64,000 bases of DNA from Planctomycetota bacterium (GCA_046290465.1 JBKAGP010000001.1:2432001-2496000); one strand, 5' to 3'. Positions 30,598 through 43,735 are shown, counted from the stretch's first letter. The notes: generated by a model from the letters alone, not told the origin. Made by a program: numbers and translations.

Positions 30598-31677
30598 CTA
30601 TCGGCCTCCGCCCTGCTTCTTGCCGGGGCCCTTCTCGGCCTTCGGCGTCTCGGCCTGCGGCTCCTCGACCGCCTCTTCCTCGACCACCTCGACCGCCTCG
30701 AGTTGCGCCGGCATCGCCTGCGCCGCGCGGGCTACGAACAGGAACGGCGCCATGCCGCCGAACATGCCGCCCGCGTTGCGCGCGCGGCCGATGTCCGTGC
30801 GCCAGACCGCGTCGCTGCCGCTGCGTTCGTGCTCGATGTGCTTCAGCATCGGCCGGAACATGCGCGCCTCCGGCATCTTTCGCAGCTCGTCGAGCCTGGC
30901 TTGCACCGCCTTCTCGGTCACCGCGAGCCCTTCGCCCGGCGTGCCGTGGCGCAGCACCATCTCGACGGTCAGGTGCGGGTCGTAGTCCTCACCGGTCGCG
31001 CGCACGCGGAAGCACGCCATCAGCGGCCGGTCGCCCTCGGGCCACTCGGTGTCCGGCAGCGCCTCGGCGAGCATCTTGCTGGGGCCGTCCTCGACGGTCA
31101 GGTCGAGCACGCAGTAGGCGACGACGTCCTTGTGCCCGGCGGTGAACGCCATCACGTCCGCCGACGGCAGCCCGGTGCGCGGCTGTCCGTCAATCACCTC
31201 GCGCAGCAACCGCTGCGGCCCGTAGACGTGCAACTTCGGCGAGACGATGGCGAGGTCGTCGCTCCACCCCCAGCGATGCGAGTAGAGCTCGCACGCGCCG
31301 ACGTCTTCGCGCTCGTATTGGTCGAGGTCGGTCGGCCGGTCGAACGGCGCGTTGCCCTCGATGACGACGACTTCCTCGAAGGCCGCCGGCTCGCCGGCCG
31401 GCTGGTAGCGGCCCGCGGTCATCGTCACGGTGTCGAGCTCGTCCGGCGAGAACCCGAGCTGCTCCTGCATCATGCCGAACACCATCTTCATCGTGGCGAT
31501 GTTCAGTTCGTCCCAGACGCCGGTACTGCGCAGCTTGCGCATGTCCAGGTGCACGACGGTCCGGTAGTCGTCGAACAGGAACTGGCGCGCGGTCGGGGGC
31601 TTCTGGGCGGCGGCACCAACACCGAGGGCGCAGACACCGAGGGCGCAGGACGTGACAAAGGTCAGGGCTCGCATCAT
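30598..31677 (-). CDS. Secreted hypothetical protein, paralog B
   Basis: Shares PPTA..FLF, VWDEL, GLPSADVM, DPHL.VE..LRH and D.GR.RNA with paralog A. Confidence 0.75.
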   Translation of the reverse strand: MMRALTFVTSCALGVCALGVGAAAQKPPTARQFLFDDYRTVVHLDMRKLRSTGVWDELNIATMKMVFGMMQEQLGFSPDELDTVTMTAGRYQPAGEPAAFEEVVVIEGNAPFDRPTDLDQYEREDVGACELYSHRWGWSDDLAIVSPKLHVYGPQRLLREVIDGQPRTGLPSADVMAFTAGHKDVVAYCVLDLTVEDGPSKMLAEALPDTEWPEGDRPLMACFRVRATGEDYDPHLTVEMVLRHGTPGEGLAVTEKAVQARLDELRKMPEARMFRPMLKHIEHERSGSDAVWRTDIGRARNAGGMFGGMAPFLFVARAAQAMPAQLEAVEVVEEEAVEEPQAETPKAEKGPGKKQGGGR

Positions 31678-31927
31678 GGTCGTTTCGGGCGCGCATTGCG
31701 CGCGACCCGCAAGACTATTCGATGCGAGCCCCAGGACGGTGCGCCAACCCTCTACTTCGCAGCAAACAGCCGTTCTCGGGCTACTTCAGAGAGGTCTGAT
31801 TGTGACGAACTGTCTCCGGCATTCCGTTTAGGCTGCCGGTTGCCCCCACTGCTCGCGCAGTTCGACGCGACGCGGTGCTACCGCATCTGGAAGGCTAGAC
31901 GGACGGGCGTCGGCGACCGTGAGCCGT

Positions 31928-33218
31928 AGCGCAACGGGGCCGCGTGCTCGCGCACGCGGAAGGTCGAACCACCGGAGTAGAACACCACCCCAGAAGCCGA
32001 AGCTTCAACGGGGCCGCGTGCTCGCGCACGCGGAAGGGTGCCCGGTGTGCGTGTTGGAGCTGGCATCGCTGGCGCTTCAACGGGGCCGCGTGCTCGCGCA
32101 CGCGGAAGGGCCCCGGCATCGTGTCGGCCGGGATGGTGTAGCCGTAGCTTCAACGGGGCCGCGTGCTCGCGCACGCGGAAGGTTCAAGGTGCTCGAGGGG
32201 GCGGCGGGGAACACGCCGGTGCTTCAACGGGGCCGCGTGCTCGCGCACGCGGAAGGGCCGAGGCGATGCCGGGCGGCATCCTGATCGACCCGTCGCTTCA
32301 ACGGGGCCGCGTGCTCGCGCACGCGGAAGGCAGCAGGAACAGGGCGACGAGCGCCCACTTGATGCGATGGCTTCAACGGGGCCGCGTGCTCGCGCACGCG
32401 GAAGGGTCGATGACGACCTCGAAGCTGCGCGCCTCGACCTCGCGGCTTCAACGGGGCCGCGTGCTCGCGCACGCGGAAGGCGGCCGGCTGATCTCCTGCA
32501 GGTGCGGCGGCAGGTGCTCGCTTCAACGGGGCCGCGTGCTCGCGCACGCGGAAGGCTCGTCGATGGCTGCCGCTACCACGAGGAAGTGCTCGGGCTTCAA
32601 CGGGGCCGCGTGCTCGCGCACGCGGAAGGTCGGCCGCGAGGCCGCGTCCGTAGAGCAGGAGACCAAGCTTCAACGGGGCCGCGTGCTCGCGCACGCGGAA
32701 GGCATCGCTGCGGCATCCAACGAGTGGATGAAGTTGGGGGCGCTTCAACGGGGCCGCGTGCTCGCGCACGCGGAAGGAAACCGTCGAGGAGTCGATCGAG
32801 AGCGTGATCGATCAGCTTCAACGGGGCCGCGTGCTCGCGCACGCGGAAGGCCCCCGACGCTGCGGGAGGCGGTGGCCGGTGTCCTGGCTTCAACGGGGCC
32901 GCGTGCTCGCGCACGCGGAAGGTTGCGCTCGACTTCCTCGCGATCTTCCTCGCCCATCAGGCTTCAACGGGGCCGCGTGCTCGCGCACGCGGAAGGTAGT
33001 TCGCCTTCAGGTTGATGAAGTGCCACCCTTCCTCGCTTCAACGGGGCCGCGTGCTCGCGCACGCGGAAGGCTTCGAGCAACTTGCGCAGCGCAACCGTGG
33101 TCTCTTGCGCTTCAACGGGGCCGCGTGCTCGCGCACGCGGAAGGCACCACGCCAGCTCGATGGCGGACCAGTCGAGCATGTCGCTTCAACGGGGCCGCGT
33201 GCTCGCGCACGCGGAAGG
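31928..33218 (-). CRISPR. CRISPR array: 18 repeats (36 bp; CCTTCCGCGTGCGCGAGCACGCGGCCCCGTTGAAGC on minus strand) and 17 spacers of 36-39 bp
   Basis: Repeats start at + coordinates 31928 (degenerate), 32002, 32074, 32147, 32221, 32295, 32370, 32445, 32520, 32594, 32667, 32742, 32815, 32887, 32961, 33035, 33109, 33183. Internal hairpin CCGCGTGC/GCACGCGG. TTGAAGC 3' end and the degenerate trailer repeat give the orientation. Confidence 0.99.
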
Positions 33219-33404
33219 AGCCCGCCCAGTGTCACCCATGGCAGCGCCGTTTCCGCAGCGTACCGCGAGCGACCCTTGCCGGGCGAGCCGGGCAAGGTGT
33301 CGACAAGGTTGCCAGACAATGTGTAACCCATGATTTCACAGATCGTTCGAGTGACAGCCGGTGATTCGACACCGCGCTACCGCTCGATCTGCCGACCGCC
33401 CCTG
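33219..33404 (-). promoter_or_regulatory. CRISPR leader
   Basis: Non-coding, more AT-rich segment between the cas2 stop and the first intact repeat; opposite end from the degenerate repeat. Confidence 0.75.
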
Positions 33405-33710
33405 TCATACCACGAAACGCCGTCCGGGCGGAGCATAGGGTTGTCCCAAGACCTCGATCTGATCGAGTACCGGATGCGTCGCCAGTCCGAGTCCCACGAG
33501 CATGACCTGGTCCTCGGTCTGGTGGATCAGACCCCGCAGGTGCTCGCGCAGTTGCACGAGTTCACGTCGGTCCAACTCGCAGACGAACACGCTGTACTGA
33601 ACGTGGTTACCGAAGTCGCGACACGTCTCGAAGACCTTGTTGCGACGTTTGTCGTCACGGATGTCGTACGCCACCAACACATGGTGGCGGCTCGTCGTTC
33701 GATGGCTCAT
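33405..33710 (-). CDS. cas2: CRISPR-associated endonuclease Cas2
   Basis: LVAYDIRDDKRR..V...C.DFG.HVQYSVF.C.L; overlaps the cas1 stop. Confidence 0.95.
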   Translation of the reverse strand: MSHRTTSRHHVLVAYDIRDDKRRNKVFETCRDFGNHVQYSVFVCELDRRELVQLREHLRGLIHQTEDQVMLVGLGLATHPVLDQIEVLGQPYAPPGRRFVV

Positions 33711-35434
33711 CGCGTCACCATCCCGTGGTAATCCGGCATATCCCCACGCAACCACCGAGCGAAGAGACGCACCTGCATCCGGACGATGGACCGCCACGAG
33801 CACCGGTAGCCGAACAGCGGATGCGTCACCAGCAGGTCGAGGCGAGCCTCGAACGCGCGGATCATCGCCTTGCGGGTGCCGGGGAGCATCATGCAGGCTG
33901 CCTTCGACTGCCGAAAGCCCTTCGCTCCGACCATGCCCGTGTTGACTGCGGACAGCACCGCGCTGTCCGCGATCAGCGGACGGAACTCCTCCATCAGGTC
34001 GAGCGCCAGCGACGGTCGCCCATGCCGGGGTCGGTGGTACAGCCCCCACCAAGGATCGAGCCCCTCCGAGAGGATCGCGACCGTCAGTTCCTTGGCGAGC
34101 AACGCGTACGTGAAAGACAGCATGGCGTTGATTGGATCGCGCGGCGGGCGCCGGTTTCGATGCTCAAACTCCCATTCCGTGCTGAGGTCACGCGGCTTGA
34201 GCATGCGACCGAAGTGGCGGAAGTAGATCGCTGCGCCGTTGCCTTCAAAGCCGAGCAGGCTATCTACCGAGGTGACCTTCTCCACGTCGCGTAGCACCTG
34301 AGCGAAGTCGCTGACTACGTGCGCCGGCAGGTCGACCGCGTTGCGTCGCAACAGCGTGCGTTGGTTCGAGACCTTTGCGGCGACGACCTGCCGTGCGAAG
34401 CGGAGCGCACGGTCCGCGTCACCGGCCACGGCGAACTGCGCGGCGCGGTCGTATGCGTTGCGCAGGTTCATGCCGTGAGTTACGCCGTAGAACCAGTGGC
34501 CGCGCGACAAGTAGACGACCGGGATCCCCGCCTCGCACAGCACGTGGAGGGTCTGCGTCGTGACCTGGACGTTTCCGCACACGACCAGTTGGCTCACGTC
34601 GATCAATCGGAACCTGCCCAGTTGCCCGTCGCGGTTGCGGACCACGAGGCTCTTACCGGATTTGCCGACCGTTGCCCCCTGCTCCTGGACGTAGAGCGGC
34701 ACGGCTTCGTCTCGGACCGGATAGAGGCGCCTGGGCTCTGCCGCGCCTTCCGGCGGAGCGCCAGCCGCCAGCGCCAGGGTCTCGTCCGGAAGGCAGATCC
34801 CGCTGAGGGAGCATCCGTTGCACTTCGGGCTGTCTTCGAGCGGCACCGGTAGCGAAGTAGCCGCCGCGGCCAGACGAGCCCGCTCGATCCAATCCAGGGT
34901 CGACGCCTCGAGTTCGGACGTGAAGGGGATCACGACGCGCGTGCGGCTGGCTCGGAAGTAGAGGTAGCCGTGGGTGCATACGTATCCGTGCTCGCGTAGC
35001 AGCAGGCCCTGGGCCATCAACTGGACCCGCTCGGGCTCATACGAGCGATCAGGCACATCAGGAACACGGCCGCGCTTGGTCTCGACCGGCACGGCCTCGT
35101 CCTCGACGGTCGAGACGAGGTCCAGTTTGGCAGACAGGCCCAACGTGTCACTGGACAACGACACGGAGCGACTGATCGTCGGCGGGTCGTCCCCACTCGC
35201 CTCGAGACCCTCGTCGCCCCCTGCACGACCTGTCGCGTCGGGGAGAACGTGCTCGAAGTCGTCCACTCGCCGATGAGCAGCCTGCCCTTCGAGTGTGTAG
35301 TGGTTGTCCTCCCAGCGCCCCTCCACATGCATCAGATGGAACAGCCGCGGGCAGTACACGAACTCGTTCAGCATACGGACCGGAATCACGCCCGGACCAG
35401 CCTGCTCCGCTCCCTGTGTCATTCCACGCTCCAT
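33707..35434 (-). CDS. cas1: Cas4-Cas1 fusion (type I-G)
   Basis: Cas4: YCPR, KLD...PVETKRG, CNGCSLSGICLP. Cas1: LLGFEG..A..YF, RRPPRDPINAMLSF.Y, LALDLMEEFRP. Confidence 0.96.
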   Translation of the reverse strand: MERGMTQGAEQAGPGVIPVRMLNEFVYCPRLFHLMHVEGRWEDNHYTLEGQAAHRRVDDFEHVLPDATGRAGGDEGLEASGDDPPTISRSVSLSSDTLGLSAKLDLVSTVEDEAVPVETKRGRVPDVPDRSYEPERVQLMAQGLLLREHGYVCTHGYLYFRASRTRVVIPFTSELEASTLDWIERARLAAAATSLPVPLEDSPKCNGCSLSGICLPDETLALAAGAPPEGAAEPRRLYPVRDEAVPLYVQEQGATVGKSGKSLVVRNRDGQLGRFRLIDVSQLVVCGNVQVTTQTLHVLCEAGIPVVYLSRGHWFYGVTHGMNLRNAYDRAAQFAVAGDADRALRFARQVVAAKVSNQRTLLRRNAVDLPAHVVSDFAQVLRDVEKVTSVDSLLGFEGNGAAIYFRHFGRMLKPRDLSTEWEFEHRNRRPPRDPINAMLSFTYALLAKELTVAILSEGLDPWWGLYHRPRHGRPSLALDLMEEFRPLIADSAVLSAVNTGMVGAKGFRQSKAACMMLPGTRKAMIRAFEARLDLLVTHPLFGYRCSWRSIVRMQVRLFARWLRGDMPDYHGMVTR

Positions 35435-35683
35435 GGTCGCCTACCGTTCTGGTTTCGCGAACAATCGGCACGGGAGTCATGCGGCCTCATACGCCGAGTG
35501 GCGAATCAAGCCTGCCGCAATGTCCGGCGTCGATACAGATCAGGCACACCACATGACTTGAAGGCGGGCCGGACGTAGCTATGCTTCCGTCGGTCTCGGC
35601 TACTGCCGCACGACGCAATTTGATATGGGAACGAGGACGGACACGACCACGCCAGGTCACCGCACGTGCGCGGGGTGCCATCC

Positions 35684-38285
35684 ATGACCGTGGCCACCCA
35701 ACGCAACACCTGGTTGCGAGCTGCACTGGGCGGCCGCGAGCCACTTCCGTGGCAGGATCGCCTGCTGTCCCGCATGGAGCGAGGTGACCTTCCTTGCGCA
35801 CTCGACCTGCCTACGGGGTTGGGCAAGACGTCGGTCATGGCCATCTGGCTCGTGGCTCGTGCTCTCGGGGCCCCGGTGCCGCGCCGCCTGGTCTACGTAG
35901 TGGACCGCCGAGCTGTCGTGGATCAGGCGACCGAGGTCGCCTCGGAGCTACGGGAGCTCGTCGATGCCGCCCCCCAACTGCGGGACGCCCTGGGACTGGA
36001 GGGCCCTCTCCCGATCTCGACCCTGCGCGGCCAGTTCGCCGACAACCGACGCTGGCTCGCGGACCCGTGCGCACCGGCGATCATCGTCGGAACCGTCGAC
36101 ATGGTGGGGTCCCGACTGCTGTTCGAAGGCTACGGCGTCTCGCGTCGCATGCGCCCCTTCCATGCCGGCATGCTCGGCGCCGACACGCTCTTGGCGCTCG
36201 ACGAGGCGCACCTCGTCCCTCCGTTCGAACGGCTCGTCACCGCGATCGCGAACGGCGCGGAGACCTTTGGTCCAGTGCAGGCCGACCTGATTCCAGCGCT
36301 CCGTGTCATGTCGTTGTCGGCCACCGGGAGCACGTGGGATCAGCCCCTCGTACTCGACGACGCAGACCGTGCCCACGACGTCGTGAAGCAGCGGCTCGGC
36401 GCAGCGAAGCACCTCGTCGTGCGCGACCCGGTCGAGCAGAAGGGACTCGTCGACCGACTCGCCGACGAGGCTTGGGAGCTCTGCCACCGAGGATCCCGTC
36501 CGGCTCGCTGTCTGGTCTTCACCAACGGCCGTCTCGTTGCCCAGCAGGTCCGCGATGCGCTCGTCAAGCGGACCGGTTGCGATGTCGGCCTGTTCGTCGG
36601 TGCACGCCGCGTCTTCGAGCGGCAGGCGGCGGCAAGCTGGCTCCGGCATCACGGCTTCCTCGCCGGATCGAGCGACCCGCCGGACAAGCCGGTGTTCCTG
36701 GTCGCGACAGCGGCGGCCGAAGTCGGTGTCGACCTCGACGCGACCCACATGGTGTGCGATGTCGTCGCCTGGGAGCGCATGGTGCAGCGGCTCGGGCGCG
36801 TCAACCGACGCGGGACCGGAACCGCGCAGATCGTCGTCGTCTCGGAGATCCGCAAGGACGACGATCGCACTCCTGGTGTTCTGGCGCTGTTGGACGAGCT
36901 CCCCGTCCACGATGACGGTAGCCGCGATGTCAGCCCGGGAGCGCTCGTAGACCTCAAGGCCGGCGCGAACGACAAGCTGCTGCGCCGGATCGCGCAGGCC
37001 AGCACCACACCGCCGCTACACCCACCGCTGACGCGCGCCGTCGTCGAGTCCTGGTCGATGACGTCCCTCGAGGAGCACACCGGACGTCCAGATGTGGCAC
37101 CGTGGATCCGTGGCTGGATCGAAGACGACGTCCCACAAGTGAAGCTCGTCTTCCGGAGCCACTTGCCGATCGATGCAACCGGCCAGCTCTTGCCAGAGCA
37201 CTCCGTCGAGGCCTACCTGGAGGCCGCACCTCCGCACTTGAAGGAAGTGCTCGAGACCGACACGTCGCTGGTCGTCAAGTGGCTCGACTCGAGACGGAAA
37301 CGGCTGGCAAAGAATCGGCGGGCCGATGACGAAACCGCGCACGACATCGACGACCTCTCGATCGTCGGACTGCTCATCGGCCGCACGCCGTCCCTGCGAA
37401 GGCCGATCACGCTCGGTGCGGTGGCGGGCTCGAAGAAGGACCTCGAACGCGACCTCGCCGGCGGCACGCTGCTGCTCGACGCGCGCATCGGTGGCCTGAC
37501 GGACGGACTGCTCGACGATTCCTCCGACGAAGCCACCGATGTAGGCGAACTGGACGAGAACGGTGCGCGCGCCCTGCCGTTCTCGATCGTGCGTAGCGGG
37601 GAGCCGATGCTCGACGACGACCTGCGCGAAGAAGCTCGCATCCCGACGGCGTGGCACGAGGGCGACGAGACCGAATGGTTGCTGATCGGCAGCCTGCGTG
37701 AGGTTTCGGCAGAGTCCGAAGACGGTCGCTCCGTCGCGCCCCGCCGCGCACAGTTGCTCGACGAGCACCAGGCCTGGACCGAGACCATCGCCACGGAGTT
37801 GGCGCAGCGCCTCGGACTGCCCGAACCGTTGGCGCGCACCCTGAAGCTGGCGGCGCGGCTCCACGACGAAGGCAAGCGCGCGCACACCTGGCAGCGCGCC
37901 TTCGGTGTCCGTGAGGACCAGCTGAAGCGAGGCGAGGTCTACGGCAAGACGACGTCACGACCCAATCTCGCGCTGCTCGCCCGCTACCGGCACGAGTTCG
38001 GCTCGCTGCCGCGGGCCGAGGAGGATCCCCGGATGGATCTGCCGCCGGATCTTCGCGAGCTGTGCCTGCACCTGATCGCGGCACACCACGGCTTCGCGCG
38101 CCCGCTGATCCGCACCGACGGCGCCGAGGGTCCACCGTCCACGCTGACCCACCGAGCCCGGGAGGTCGCACTTCGCTTCTCGCACCTCGAACGCACGTGG
38201 GGGCCGTGGGGCCTGGCGTGGCTGGAGGTGCTGTTGCGCGCTGCCGACCAGCAGGCGTCACGCCGCAACGACGAGGAGGGCGCGC

Positions 38286-38293
<8 letters not shown>
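35684..38293 (+). CDS. cas3: Type I-G Cas3 helicase with C-terminal HD nuclease
   Basis: PTGLGKT, YVVDRR, GTVDM.GSRLLF, DEAH, QRLGRVNR; C-terminal LHDEGK, RHE, HHG, RAADQ. Confidence 0.95.
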
Positions 38294-40255
<1,962 letters not shown>

Positions 40256-40256
40256 G

Positions 40257-42395
40257 ATGAGCCGATACCTCGTCCTCACTCTGCACCTGCACGACCGGTT
40301 CCACGGAATGGCTCCGGACGGACCGGAGTGGCCACCGTCACCGGCTCGGGTGTTTCAGGCCCTCGTGGCAGGCGCCTCGCGCGGCTGCGGCGTCCCCCCC
40401 GCGGTCACACGCGCACTGCAATGGCTGGAGTCGTTGCCGCCTCCTGTGATCGCTACGCCGCGCGCTACGCTGGGCAGCCGCTTGCATCTGTTCGTGCCGA
40501 ACAATGATGCCGACACGCTGCGAGATCCGCGCGACGTCGGCGACATCCGCGTGCCGAAGCTGGTGCACCCGCGACTGCTCGAATCGGGCACTCTCCTCTA
40601 CGCCTGGCAGATCGACGCTGACCCCGAAGCTCATGCGCAAGCGGTCATCGCTACGTCCGAGCAGCTCTACCAACTGGGCCGCGGAATCGACATGGCGTGG
40701 GCATCAGCCGAACTGCTCGACGAGAAAGCCCTCACCGAACGCCTGGACTCTTTCCACGGCGACATCCATCGACCCGAGCCGCGCAGCCAGACGAACTCGC
40801 TGGCCTGCCCGGCACCGGGCACGCTGAAGAGCCTCGAGAGCCGGCACTCCGCGCAACGGATCCGAACCGAACCGGCGGGACGCTCGACGCAGAGCTACTT
40901 CACCAACGCGCCCAAGGCCCGGTTCCGACAGGTCGGCTACGCGCTGACAGTCCGCAGGCTTGTCTACGACCTGCGGCGCAGCGACGAGCCGAGCAGGGCG
41001 ATCGCGATCCGCCCTTCGCAAGCCACCACGCTCGTCGAGCGTGTCCGCGACGCCGCAGCGCTCCGCTTGCAACGCGCCGCCCCCCACCAGACCCCAGACG
41101 TCGAGCGGTGCCTGATCGGTCGCAAAGGGCACGAAAACGGTGGCGGCTCCCCCGCCGACCGGGTCCGCATCGTCCCTCTACCCTCGATCGGCTCGCCTCA
41201 CGCCGATCGTGGCATCCGACGCATCCTGGTCGAGATCCCCGGCACAGCGCCACTGCCACCCGACGACGTCGAATGGGCTTTCTCCGGCGTTTCGCCTGTC
41301 GATCGCGCGACCGGCGAGGTCGACGCCAGGGTCGTGCTCGTGCGGGCGGATGACGGCAAGATGCTGCAGCACTACATCACGGCCTCCACCCGGTGGCGCA
41401 CCGTGACTCCAGCCGCCCTGCCAGAACGTGCGTCGCGGCGCCGGATCGCACCCGACAGGATCGACGAACAATCGAAGGGCGCGACGGAGCGCCGCGCCGA
41501 AGAGGCGCGCGCGCTCGTAGCGGTGCGCGACGCGCTCCGCCACGCCGGTGTCCGCGCATCCGTCATCGGGGCCCACGTCCAGCGGGAGCCGTTCGAACCC
41601 AGGGGACTCCGTGCCGAGCAGTTCGCGCACGCACCGCGATTCGTCAAGGAGCGGCTCTGGCACGTCGAACTCGACTTCGGCGAACGCGTCGATGGGCCGC
41701 TCGTCCTGGGTGACGGTCGGTTCCTCGGCCTGGGTGTGATGGCACCCGCTGATGAGCCCCGATGCGGCGTCTACGCGTTCGGAGCCGATATCGACTCCGG
41801 CACCCCGGAAGGCCTGGCGCGCGCGCTGCGACGCGCGGTCATGGCGCGGGCACAGCAGGCGCTCGGCAGGCGCCCCCTGCCCCCGAGCTTCAGCGGTCAC
41901 GAAGCCGACGGATCCCCAGCCCGTGGAGGCCGGCACCTCGCTTTCCAGGTCGATCTCGTCAACGATCGCCTGCTCGTTGTGGCCCACGAATCGACCAAGA
42001 GGAGCGACATCGATCTGCTCGAAGCGGCGCTCGACGGACTGTCGGTGCTCAAGGCCGGCGCCGCCGGAACGCTGCGGTTGCACCGGCAGGCCATGACCGG
42101 CGAGGACCCGGTACTTCGCCCTTCACGGTGTTGGGCGTCGGCCAACGACTACACCGTCACGCGCCACACGAAGGGCTCGGACCCCGAGCAAGCCCTGAAG
42201 GACGACGTCGTGCGAGAGTGCGTGCGCCGCGGCTTGCCTACTCCCTTGGTCAACATCTCGAGTCTTCTTGGCGTACCGAAGCGCGGACTCTCGGGTCGGC
42301 TGGAGTTGACTTTCTCGCGCCCCGTTCATGGCCCGGTTCTTCTCGGGCGAACACGGCACCGTGGAGGAGGACTGTTCGTGGCAGGGCAGCAATAG
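40257..42395 (+). CDS. csb2: Csb2 (Cas5-Cas6 fusion), extended ~712-aa form
   Basis: EWPPSPARVFQALVA, WLE.LPPP.I, FVPNND, LGRG; two G-rich Cas6-type loops. Confidence 0.92.
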   Translation: MSRYLVLTLHLHDRFHGMAPDGPEWPPSPARVFQALVAGASRGCGVPPAVTRALQWLESLPPPVIATPRATLGSRLHLFVPNNDADTLRDPRDVGDIRVPKLVHPRLLESGTLLYAWQIDADPEAHAQAVIATSEQLYQLGRGIDMAWASAELLDEKALTERLDSFHGDIHRPEPRSQTNSLACPAPGTLKSLESRHSAQRIRTEPAGRSTQSYFTNAPKARFRQVGYALTVRRLVYDLRRSDEPSRAIAIRPSQATTLVERVRDAAALRLQRAAPHQTPDVERCLIGRKGHENGGGSPADRVRIVPLPSIGSPHADRGIRRILVEIPGTAPLPPDDVEWAFSGVSPVDRATGEVDARVVLVRADDGKMLQHYITASTRWRTVTPAALPERASRRRIAPDRIDEQSKGATERRAEEARALVAVRDALRHAGVRASVIGAHVQREPFEPRGLRAEQFAHAPRFVKERLWHVELDFGERVDGPLVLGDGRFLGLGVMAPADEPRCGVYAFGADIDSGTPEGLARALRRAVMARAQQALGRRPLPPSFSGHEADGSPARGGRHLAFQVDLVNDRLLVVAHESTKRSDIDLLEAALDGLSVLKAGAAGTLRLHRQAMTGEDPVLRPSRCWASANDYTVTRHTKGSDPEQALKDDVVRECVRRGLPTPLVNISSLLGVPKRGLSGRLELTFSRPVHGPVLLGRTRHRGGGLFVAGQQ

Positions 42396-42545
42396 CACTG
42401 AGCGGGCGGATCGCATCGGACCACACCGGTAGCAGTTCTACAGCTCTACGTGCCCGGCCCGCACCACCACTTCATGGCCGTGGTGACGTCCAACACGTTA
42501 GCGATGAACCCAAGGCCGTAGTTTTGGGCGAACAACCGTTCTCCC

Positions 42546-42659
42546 TCAGCGCCCCGCCATCACCACGATGAACCAGGCGGTCACCGCCACGATCAGCGTC
42601 ACGGGGATGAGGATGATCCAGCCTGGGCGGCGGCCTCGGTTTGCGGCGTCTTCGGTCAT
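42546..42659 (-). CDS. 37-aa single-TM small protein coupled to lptG
   Basis: ATGA overlap with the lptG stop; MTEDAANRGRRPGWIILIPVTLIVAVTAWFIVVMAGR. Confidence 0.45.
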   Translation of the reverse strand: MTEDAANRGRRPGWIILIPVTLIVAVTAWFIVVMAGR

Positions 42660-43735
42660 GAGCGGGTGCTGCCGAACAGTACGACGCCGAGCGACCCGAA
42701 CACAATGGTCGGAGTCCACGCCGCGACGATCGGGTGCAGCCATTCGCGCTGGCCCAGCCGCTGGCAGACCAGGTCGAGCAGGAAGTAGCCACCGCACATC
42801 GCGATCGCGGCCAGGATCCGGTCGATGCGGCTGCCGCGCTCGTAGCGCACCGCCATCGGCAGCGCCAACAGCAGCAGCAGCAGGTTGGCCAGCGGATAGG
42901 TGATGTGGCGATGCAGCGCCAGCCGCACGTCGGCGCGGTTCGGGCGGGCCTCGATCAGTTCGACGAGGTCCGTGTAGGACATCGTCTCCGGATCGACGGT
43001 CTCTCGCGACTGCTGCAGCAACACCTCCGGCGTCACGTCGGGACGTTCGAGCCAGGTCTGGTCGTGGCGACCGTCACGGCGATCGAGGCGGCCGTCCTCG
43101 AGCGACCAGTCGCCGCGCTCCGCGTCCCAGGAGCCGAGCCGGGCGCTGATCAGCGTCGCGTCGGCCGCGAGCGTCCCCTGGATCAACAGCCGCACGTCGT
43201 GCATCTGCTTGTTCACCGGGTCGTACTCGCGCACGTACATGTACTGGCTGACCTCCTCGTGGCTCTCGTGCACGAGGAACTTCTGCATCGAACTGCCCTG
43301 CCGCAAGAACGTCTCGTTGGTCGCCAGCGCCGCGCCGACGTGCGGCACCACCCACTGCCAGCTCGACACCATCAGGATCGCGCCGAGCGCGCCGCACCAC
43401 AGGATCGGCGCGAGCACCCGATGGATGCTGCGGCCGACGAACAGCATCGGCACGATCTCGTTGGCGCCGTGCAGCCGCGCCACCGCGAACATGCCGGCGA
43501 TCACCGTCGCGAACGGCGTCACCGTCGTGACCAGCACCGGCAGCAGCTTGACGTAGTAGAGGCCGAGGTAGGCCGCCAGTTGCATGCCGCCGAGGTCTTC
43601 GCTGGCGGCGCGCTCGGCGTAGCGCGGCAGGTTGTTGAGCAGGTCGACGAGGATCGACAAGAACAGGAAGAACAGCAGCGACGCGAGGAACGCGCCGAGC
43701 ACGATCTTGCCGACGTAGCGATCGAGGCGGCTCAT
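42656..43735 (-). CDS. lptG: LPS export permease LptG family
   Basis: MSRLDRYV, 3+3 TM layout, NEIV.M...G.S..R, LHPIVAAW.P. Confidence 0.85.
   Translation of the reverse strand: MSRLDRYVGKIVLGAFLASLLFFLFLSILVDLLNNLPRYAERAASEDLGGMQLAAYLGLYYVKLLPVLVTTVTPFATVIAGMFAVARLHGANEIVPMLFVGRSIHRVLAPILWCGALGAILMVSSWQWVVPHVGAALATNETFLRQGSSMQKFLVHESHEEVSQYMYVREYDPVNKQMHDVRLLIQGTLAADATLISARLGSWDAERGDWSLEDGRLDRRDGRHDQTWLERPDVTPEVLLQQSRETVDPETMSYTDLVELIEARPNRADVRLALHRHITYPLANLLLLLLALPMAVRYERGSRIDRILAAIAMCGGYFLLDLVCQRLGQREWLHPIVAAWTPTIVFGSLGVVLFGSTRS

Follow-up and report, generated by a model that had tools for sequence, protein, structure and literature searches.

Two kinds of small phage protein described as nucleotide sponges are relevant to the family examined here: the Acb2/Tad1 hairpin proteins, which belong to Pfam family PF24729, and Acb4. 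The former are homo-hexamers that sequester cyclic nucleotides or gcADPR. Validated Acb2 homologues are reported to share about 24% identity, and Y11 and K26 are named as the ligand residues of PaMx33 Acb2. According to the corresponding preprint, Acb4 of phage SPO1 is a 96-residue member of PF13876 that binds 3'3'-cGAMP as a tetramer, with three antiparallel strands flanked by helices in each chain and a dsRBD-like fold (Chang et al., bioRxiv 10.1101/2024.12.30.630793).

For the CRISPR locus itself, the closest process is primed adaptation by type I systems, in which an older spacer that pairs imperfectly with a related phage can lead to two same-strand spacers from one short target stretch. 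The PAM given for type I-G by Shangguan et al. is TTN, on the 5' side of the protospacer.

Our analysis concerned a 64,000-nt stretch of a Planctomycetota genome (the window) that contains a type I-G locus. Two spacers of its array match a single family of small phage proteins. The reading that we favor, with a probability of roughly 0.6 for all of its parts together, is that these spacers are ordinary I-G memories of one phage gene, that they arose as a primed pair in a local event, and that the gene belongs to a sister family of known sponges.

A type I-G locus and two spacers against one phage gene family

The array and its cas genes occupy the following positions, counted from the first letter of the window:

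31929..33218, minus strand: CRISPR array, 18 repeats of 36 nt and 17 spacers of 36-39 nt
33219..33404 (about), minus strand: putative leader, assigned by position as the interval between cas2 and the first repeat
33405..33706, minus strand: cas2 (TIGR01573, E 1.9e-10); the ORF as listed extends to 34052
33707..35434, minus strand: cas4g/cas1g fusion (NF049935, E 3.9e-211, 702 bits against a cut-off of 560)
35666..38293, plus strand: cas3g (TIGR02621, E 1.1e-182)
38286..39179, plus strand: cas8g2 (Csx17; TIGR04106, E 2.5e-52)
39176..40255, plus strand: cas7g (Csb1; TIGR02570, E 2.6e-39)
39921..42395, plus strand: csb2, a Cas5-Cas6 fusion (TIGR02165, E 7e-89)

The locus is a complete type I-G system. 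All six members of the gene set (Cas3g, Cas8g, Cas7g or Csb1, Csb2, the Cas4-Cas1 fusion and Cas2) are recognized by subtype-specific NCBIfam models. Two of the listed ORFs probably start too early. Because the Cas2 match spans only residues 125-188 of its ORF, the true cas2 start is probably internal, and because the Csb2 match begins at residue 116, csb2 probably starts near 40266.

Seventeen repeat copies are exact instances of GCTTCAACGGGGCCGCGTGCTCGCGCACGCGGAAGG, which reads CCTTCCGCGTGCGCGAGCACGCGGCCCCGTTGAAGC on the minus strand, and one degenerate copy is located at 31929, the left end of the array. Three features indicate that the leader end is the one next to cas2: the adaptation genes (cas4/cas1-cas2) are oriented towards it, the degenerate repeat sits at the opposite end, and in 45 of 80 related I-G loci the arrays are positioned downstream of cas4/cas1 and their repeats end in TTGAAGC, just like this repeat when read on the minus strand.

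The closest relative of the Cas4/Cas1 protein is found in a Planctomycetota MAG (76% identity), in keeping with the phylum given for the host, and the exact repeat has no match in the genome_contigs database. A filter for GC3 of at least 0.85 is passed by the flanking genes and by no ORF of the array and cas region (31677-42656). From this contrast with its flanks, the I-G locus may have been acquired horizontally. Downstream of csb2, at 41762-42903, are two ORFs of 269 and 111 aa that have no NCBIfam match.

The two spacers of interest are as follows:

32481..32519, minus strand: spacer 8, 10th from the leader; frame 0 of the reverse complement encodes EHLPPHLQEISRP, the N-terminal motif of the family
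33071..33108, minus strand: spacer 16, 2nd from the leader; frame 1 of the reverse complement encodes QETTVALRKLLE, the start of the family's second helix

Both are thus read on the same strand. A profile HMM of the family scores these frames at 18.3 bits (spacer 8) and 17.9 bits (spacer 16), and the remaining 100 frames of the 17 spacers reach at most 0.5 bits. Shuffled spacers gave a maximum of 5.8 bits in 20,400 frames. A control that used 38-mers from the window, array included, had top scores of 16.5 and 12.5 bits; in a repeat with the array excluded, the maximum in 30,000 frames was 6.3 bits. The match of exactly two spacers to the phage family is beyond chance.

Partial blastn matches of the spacers point to short genes, annotated as hypothetical, of four named phages: Bradyrhizobium phage ppBeUSDA76-1, Labrenzia phage vB_LagS-V1, Mesorhizobium phage Cp1R7A-A1 and Ruegeria phage RpAliso. 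The first-pass annotation of this DNA had quoted two motifs and claimed that these spacers, placed 10th and 2nd from the leader, correspond to both conserved ends of a single family of small phage proteins. The claim is borne out. The products of all four phage genes carry both motifs, as does an alignment of 34 family members, and the positions in the array are correct; the second spacer, too, is read from the reverse complement, which had been left unstated.

Bases 3-22 of the reverse complement of the spacer at 32481-32519 also occur, as an exact 20-nt match, in gp48/49, a gene annotated as hypothetical, of nine Mycobacterium phages among the records listed. For the other 15 spacers, isolate phages gave no match, and matches in any fetched locus do not exceed 13-18 nt.

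A large family of short phage proteins with a predicted helical fold

Members of the targeted family have 57-70 residues, and the gene that the spacers would target has about 65 codons. The family comprises 5,555 clusters at 90% identity and 6,561 representatives at 50% identity (E up to 0.001). It is present in 317 of 50,697 isolate phage records, whose phage names most often point to Vibrio (99), Erwinia (48), Acinetobacter (45), Brevibacterium (32) and Gordonia (30) as hosts. All features listed carry the annotation "hypothetical protein." The family is distributed over tailed phages that infect Proteobacteria or Actinobacteria, and it occasionally turns up in genomes of the phylum to which the host belongs. 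A strong copy occurs in 2 of 400 other genomes of that phylum (L012 in G357 and L013 in G392), presumably within prophages, and the host genome itself has neither a family member nor a protospacer.

The family matches PHROGs 1761 and 5120, both annotated as function unknown, and it has no Pfam family and no NCBIfam model. NCBIfam likewise has no model for T4 Vs.4 or JBD67 Acb2. We found no paper on phrog_1761 or phrog_5120 in a literature search.

Conservation within the family is high. Twenty-two columns are invariant among the 34 aligned members, which share the motifs HLPxxLQxxSxPF and ALRKLLEAKDxxVRA, and tblastn identity is 44-66% across phages of Vibrio, Acinetobacter, Gordonia and Mycobacterium. 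An AlphaFold2 model (pLDDT 91) is all-helical, with helices at residues 4-9, 16-35 and 40-64; the predicted fold has a short helix at the N-terminus and, after it, a hairpin of two helices. Single natural proteins with tandem duplicates of the domain (P0129, P0170, P0176, P0194 and P0224) fit a self-associating unit. Among 26 long members, two (P0192 and P0236) carry a fused Clp_N domain, and no other partner scored above the cut-off.

Relation to known sponge proteins

The first-pass annotation had associated the family with anti-defence nucleotide sponges of the Acb4 type. Acb4 resembles the family in being a small, widespread phage protein. However, it is a 96-residue, dsRBD-like tetramer, whereas the family is all-helical in the model. 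PF13876 was matched by none of the four phage members (E up to 1), none of the 34 aligned members (E up to 10) and none of six diverse members (E up to 10). We therefore reject the Acb4 identity, because the family has no PF13876 match and its predicted fold differs from the alpha/beta fold of Acb4.

The broader idea of a sponge has gained support, since the family is probably a sister of the Acb2/Tad1 hairpin sponges. This kinship, which we regard as likely from the sequence comparisons that follow, is not apparent from the Pfam model: the same sets of 4, 34 and 6 family members contain no protein above the PF24729 gathering score of 27 bits. The best score below this threshold belongs to gp27 of Brevibacterium phage AGM1 (16.4 bits, E 0.011), and T4 Vs.4, used as a positive control, scores 71 bits. 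PF24729 is also absent from five phage records that carry the gene.

The clearest connection is with a clade of short proteins that have the motif F-[ST]-Y-H-P-P-T. A scan of IMG/VR for this motif produced 35 loci and, after longer, shorter and out-of-frame matches were left out, 15 unique proteins of 55-95 residues, every one of which is a PF24729 member (43-88 bits). With the family HMM, the eight highest-scoring proteins reach 11.7-16.1 bits, whereas 750 shuffles give no more than 7.4 bits; the alignment (profile positions 20-53) falls outside the motif by which the proteins were selected. When the two alignments were compared with hhalign, the probability was 93.3% (E 2.8e-7) over 51 columns, and the aromatic-x-H-L-P of the family was paired with the Y-H-P-P of the clade. 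The conserved aromatic residue of F-x-Y/F-x-H-L-P is thereby aligned with the Tyr of F-[ST]-Y-H-P-P-T. By the same method, the clade is linked to T4-type Acb2 with a probability of 67% and to JBD67-type Acb2 with 0.7%.

Other comparisons point in the same direction. A structure search of BFVD returned the family's own members and then, at ranks between 7 and 34, 11 proteins that bear the name "Acb2/Tad1 hairpin domain-containing." In the ESM Atlas, a neighboring cluster has PF24729 in 18% of its members, and a weak match to phrog_1454 is common to the family and T4 Vs.4. The topology of the Acb2 protomer as outlined in a review agrees with the helix topology predicted for the family, although this fold is simple and common.

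With Acb2/Tad1 proteins (PaMx33 and JBD67 Acb2, T4 Vs.4 and the short clade), the family shares a small size, a phage origin, a short N-terminal element in which H and P come after a conserved aromatic residue, and, in the model, two long antiparallel helices. It differs from them in being shorter (57-70 aa) and far more conserved, in having motifs of its own, and in remaining below the Pfam cut-off. Its similarity to T4-type and JBD67-type Acb2 is below detection: HMM and hhalign comparisons with these proteins gave nothing above shuffles, and the narrow profiles used are insensitive, as T4-type and JBD67-type Acb2 match each other by HMM with an E of about 1e-7 and reach a probability of only 7.5% by hhalign.

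Searches of experimentally solved structures were negative within their scope. No sponge was found among PDB sequences by single-sequence or profile search, and Foldseek against the PDB returned no match with E below 1.8. VIA-align, in a wide search and a second look, gave only generic helical matches (Z up to 7.3 and up to 6.2, respectively), with no Acb2 chain among the matches listed. A reciprocal search of BFVD with a model of JBD67-type Acb2 is uninformative, because its top 50 matches include no family member and just one PF24729-named protein.

Five motif strings of the family were absent from the 9,141 Acb2 homologues in Table S1 of Hadary et al. The same table includes one Tad1 homologue from IMG/VR (homologs_Tad1, row 2249) to which the family domain is fused C-terminally. 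For the contig of this Tad1 fusion, two back-translated patterns gave no match.

These data also bear on another account of the family, by which it would not be a sponge but a small helical adaptor for a universally conserved host protein or nucleic acid, its likeness to the hairpin proteins being that of a shared simple fold. Such an adaptor would explain why conservation is unusually high for sponges (44-66% tblastn identity, compared with the figure of about 24% reported for Acb2 homologues), why the family is missing from the 9,141 Acb2 homologues of Hadary et al., and why it falls short of the Pfam threshold; helical hairpins, moreover, give many generic structural matches. However, the hhalign probability of 93% was obtained with a bona fide PF24729 clade over 51 columns that include the N-terminal aromatic-H-P motif, the BFVD neighbors are enriched for PF24729 proteins, and a Tad1 homologue in the table of Hadary et al. 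carries the family domain. We therefore consider the adaptor account somewhat unlikely, and a sponge function, judged from sequence relationships, is plausible.

If the family is a sister of the hairpin sponges, its product would probably form a homo-oligomer that sequesters a nucleotide immune signal. A signal of this kind could be made by the host, whose genome (6.59 Mb, one contig) includes, at a distance of about 0.8 Mb from the array, a CBASS operon:

G000:C1:1620718-1623115 (L017 946-3343), outside the window: CBASS operon, adjacent ORFs for a cyclase, an E2 protein and a 1TM effector

The three ORFs are identified by PADLOC models (cyclase PDLC00777, E 6.9e-115; E2 PDLC00867, E 6.6e-42; 1TM effector PDLC00666, E 7.8e-22), and the cyclase also matches Pfam SMODS (29.3 bits, cut-off 26.5). 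This CD-NTase has an N-terminal extension of 146 residues. A search of the host for CBASS or Thoeris, which the first-pass annotation had proposed, was hence successful for CBASS, and no TIR_2 or ThsB_TIR match was present in the genome. Because the host carries this operon, an anti-CBASS sponge would profit a phage that infects it. A functional coupling of CRISPR and CBASS, as had been suggested, is not supported.

Origin of the spacer pair

An exact search of IMG/VR with the spacers revealed no protospacer. Near-perfect protospacers were not found either, and patterns that allow synonymous codons recovered only relatives with 3-10 mismatches. A scan of metagenomes for genes that encode QETTVALRKLLE produced 21 loci, which constitute a "QETT" subgroup and often encode the first motif as well. 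Both spacers can be aligned with single genes of this kind: spacer 8 with 3 mismatches (36/39) and spacer 16 with 7 in L023, with 4 (35/39) and 8 in L022, and with 4 (35/39) and 10 in L011. The two sites in these genes share a strand and are separated by 14 codons, such that the protospacers are about 41 nt apart. Both spacers can therefore stem from a single gene. For spacer 16 the best matches (4 mismatches, 34/38) are in L030 and L034, two loci that differ from spacer 8 at 14 positions. Because the best matches of the two spacers are in different contigs, two related source phages are possible.

We propose that both spacers are memories of one phage gene of the "QETT" subgroup, whose sense-strand sequence would be carried by the crRNAs. 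Spacer 8, the older of the two, most likely primed the uptake of spacer 16. The trigger would have been infection by a phage whose version of this conserved gene was related to the first but matched the spacer imperfectly. More generally, a spacer against a very conserved gene would pair imperfectly with the corresponding gene of many related phages, and priming may then draw in neighboring spacers from the same strand. Because priming would have acted within one gene, the spacer pair would be a local, non-independent event.

The locus resembles primed adaptation in other type I systems in three respects: two same-strand spacers would derive from one short target stretch, the older one can pair imperfectly with related phages, and the array belongs to a type I system that is complete and includes both Cas3 and Cas4-Cas1. 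It differs in that priming is here deduced from sequence. Priming is not known to have been demonstrated in type I-G. Against a single source with priming it can be argued that the closest DNA matches of the two spacers are in different contigs, that seven spacers separate the pair, and that a TTN flank is rare beside the sampled relatives. Of the 23 rows for protospacer 8 in these relatives, 16 have TAC or TAT on the 5' side and only 2 have TTC; beside protospacer 16, TTC occurs in 1 of 23 rows.

Spacers of related systems were collected from the best 80 of 585 loci that encode relatives of the Cas4g/Cas1g fusion, with one genome per species. Arrays were present in 45 of the 80 loci (50 segments, 1,222 spacers). 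When translated in all six frames, none of these 1,222 spacers matched the family; the maximum, 6.0 bits, is at the level of the controls. The difference between 2 of 17 spacers here and 0 of 1,222 in the related arrays (Fisher p = 1.8e-4) is best seen as a linked, clustered event in one array. A general enrichment of spacers against the family is not supported. The first-pass annotation had inferred that spacers against conserved anti-defence genes may be preferentially retained, a proposal that this null result does not support; among the papers listed by a literature search on spacers and anti-defence genes, none addressed it. Primed neighbors in one phage with no wider enrichment, the outcome that the same annotation had set against its own proposal, are close to what the data favor.

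The principal competing explanation for the pair is that the two spacers were acquired independently and without priming, from two different phages, and that both were retained since a spacer against a conserved anti-defence gene would guard against many phages and deprive them of their counter-defence. This explanation accommodates the different contigs in which the closest DNA relatives of the spacers are found, the distance of seven positions in the array, the high conservation of the gene across phages, and the presence of CBASS in the host. A difference in codon style had earlier been taken as a sign of separate source phages. The contrast is real but weak, with GC3 in 13 of 13 codons of spacer 8 versus 9 of 12 of spacer 16, and it is not significant (Fisher p = 0.096); the claim of different phages is weakened further by the single genes that hold both motifs. 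The absence of family matches among the 1,222 related spacers also argues against independent acquisition. In addition, the count of 2 in 17 is partly a matter of ascertainment, as the recognizable spacers are only those that fall in very conserved genes. We regard independent acquisition as improbable.

A bolder version of the priming proposal, which we consider quite improbable, is that the family is an ultra-conserved, minimal branch of Acb2/Tad1 with an immune-signal ligand of its own, found in phages of at least three bacterial phyla. One spacer against such a gene would cross-prime on many unrelated phages, and CRISPR memory would home in on it repeatedly. It is very unlikely that two unrelated spacers fell into the same 200-bp gene by chance: even though the family is extremely common in phages, so that many source phages would carry the gene, 200 bp is about 0.4% of a 50-kb phage, 17 spacers would give ~0.07 expected hits with P(≥2) of roughly 0.002, and the two sites share a strand at a distance of 41 nt, with 0 of 1,222 hits among other spacers.

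The CRISPR part of these observations is ordinary: a phage gene is matched by spacers, and primed adaptation yields two neighboring spacers. The null result in 1,222 spacers of related arrays lends no support to the notion that CRISPR retains spacers against anti-defence genes by preference. The value of the finding lies instead in the phage protein family, which is very large, is annotated as hypothetical in every record examined, and likely belongs beside the Acb2/Tad1 sponges. Its members are short enough for quick testing. Should they bind an immune signal, the family would be among the most widespread and most conserved of phage counter-defence proteins.
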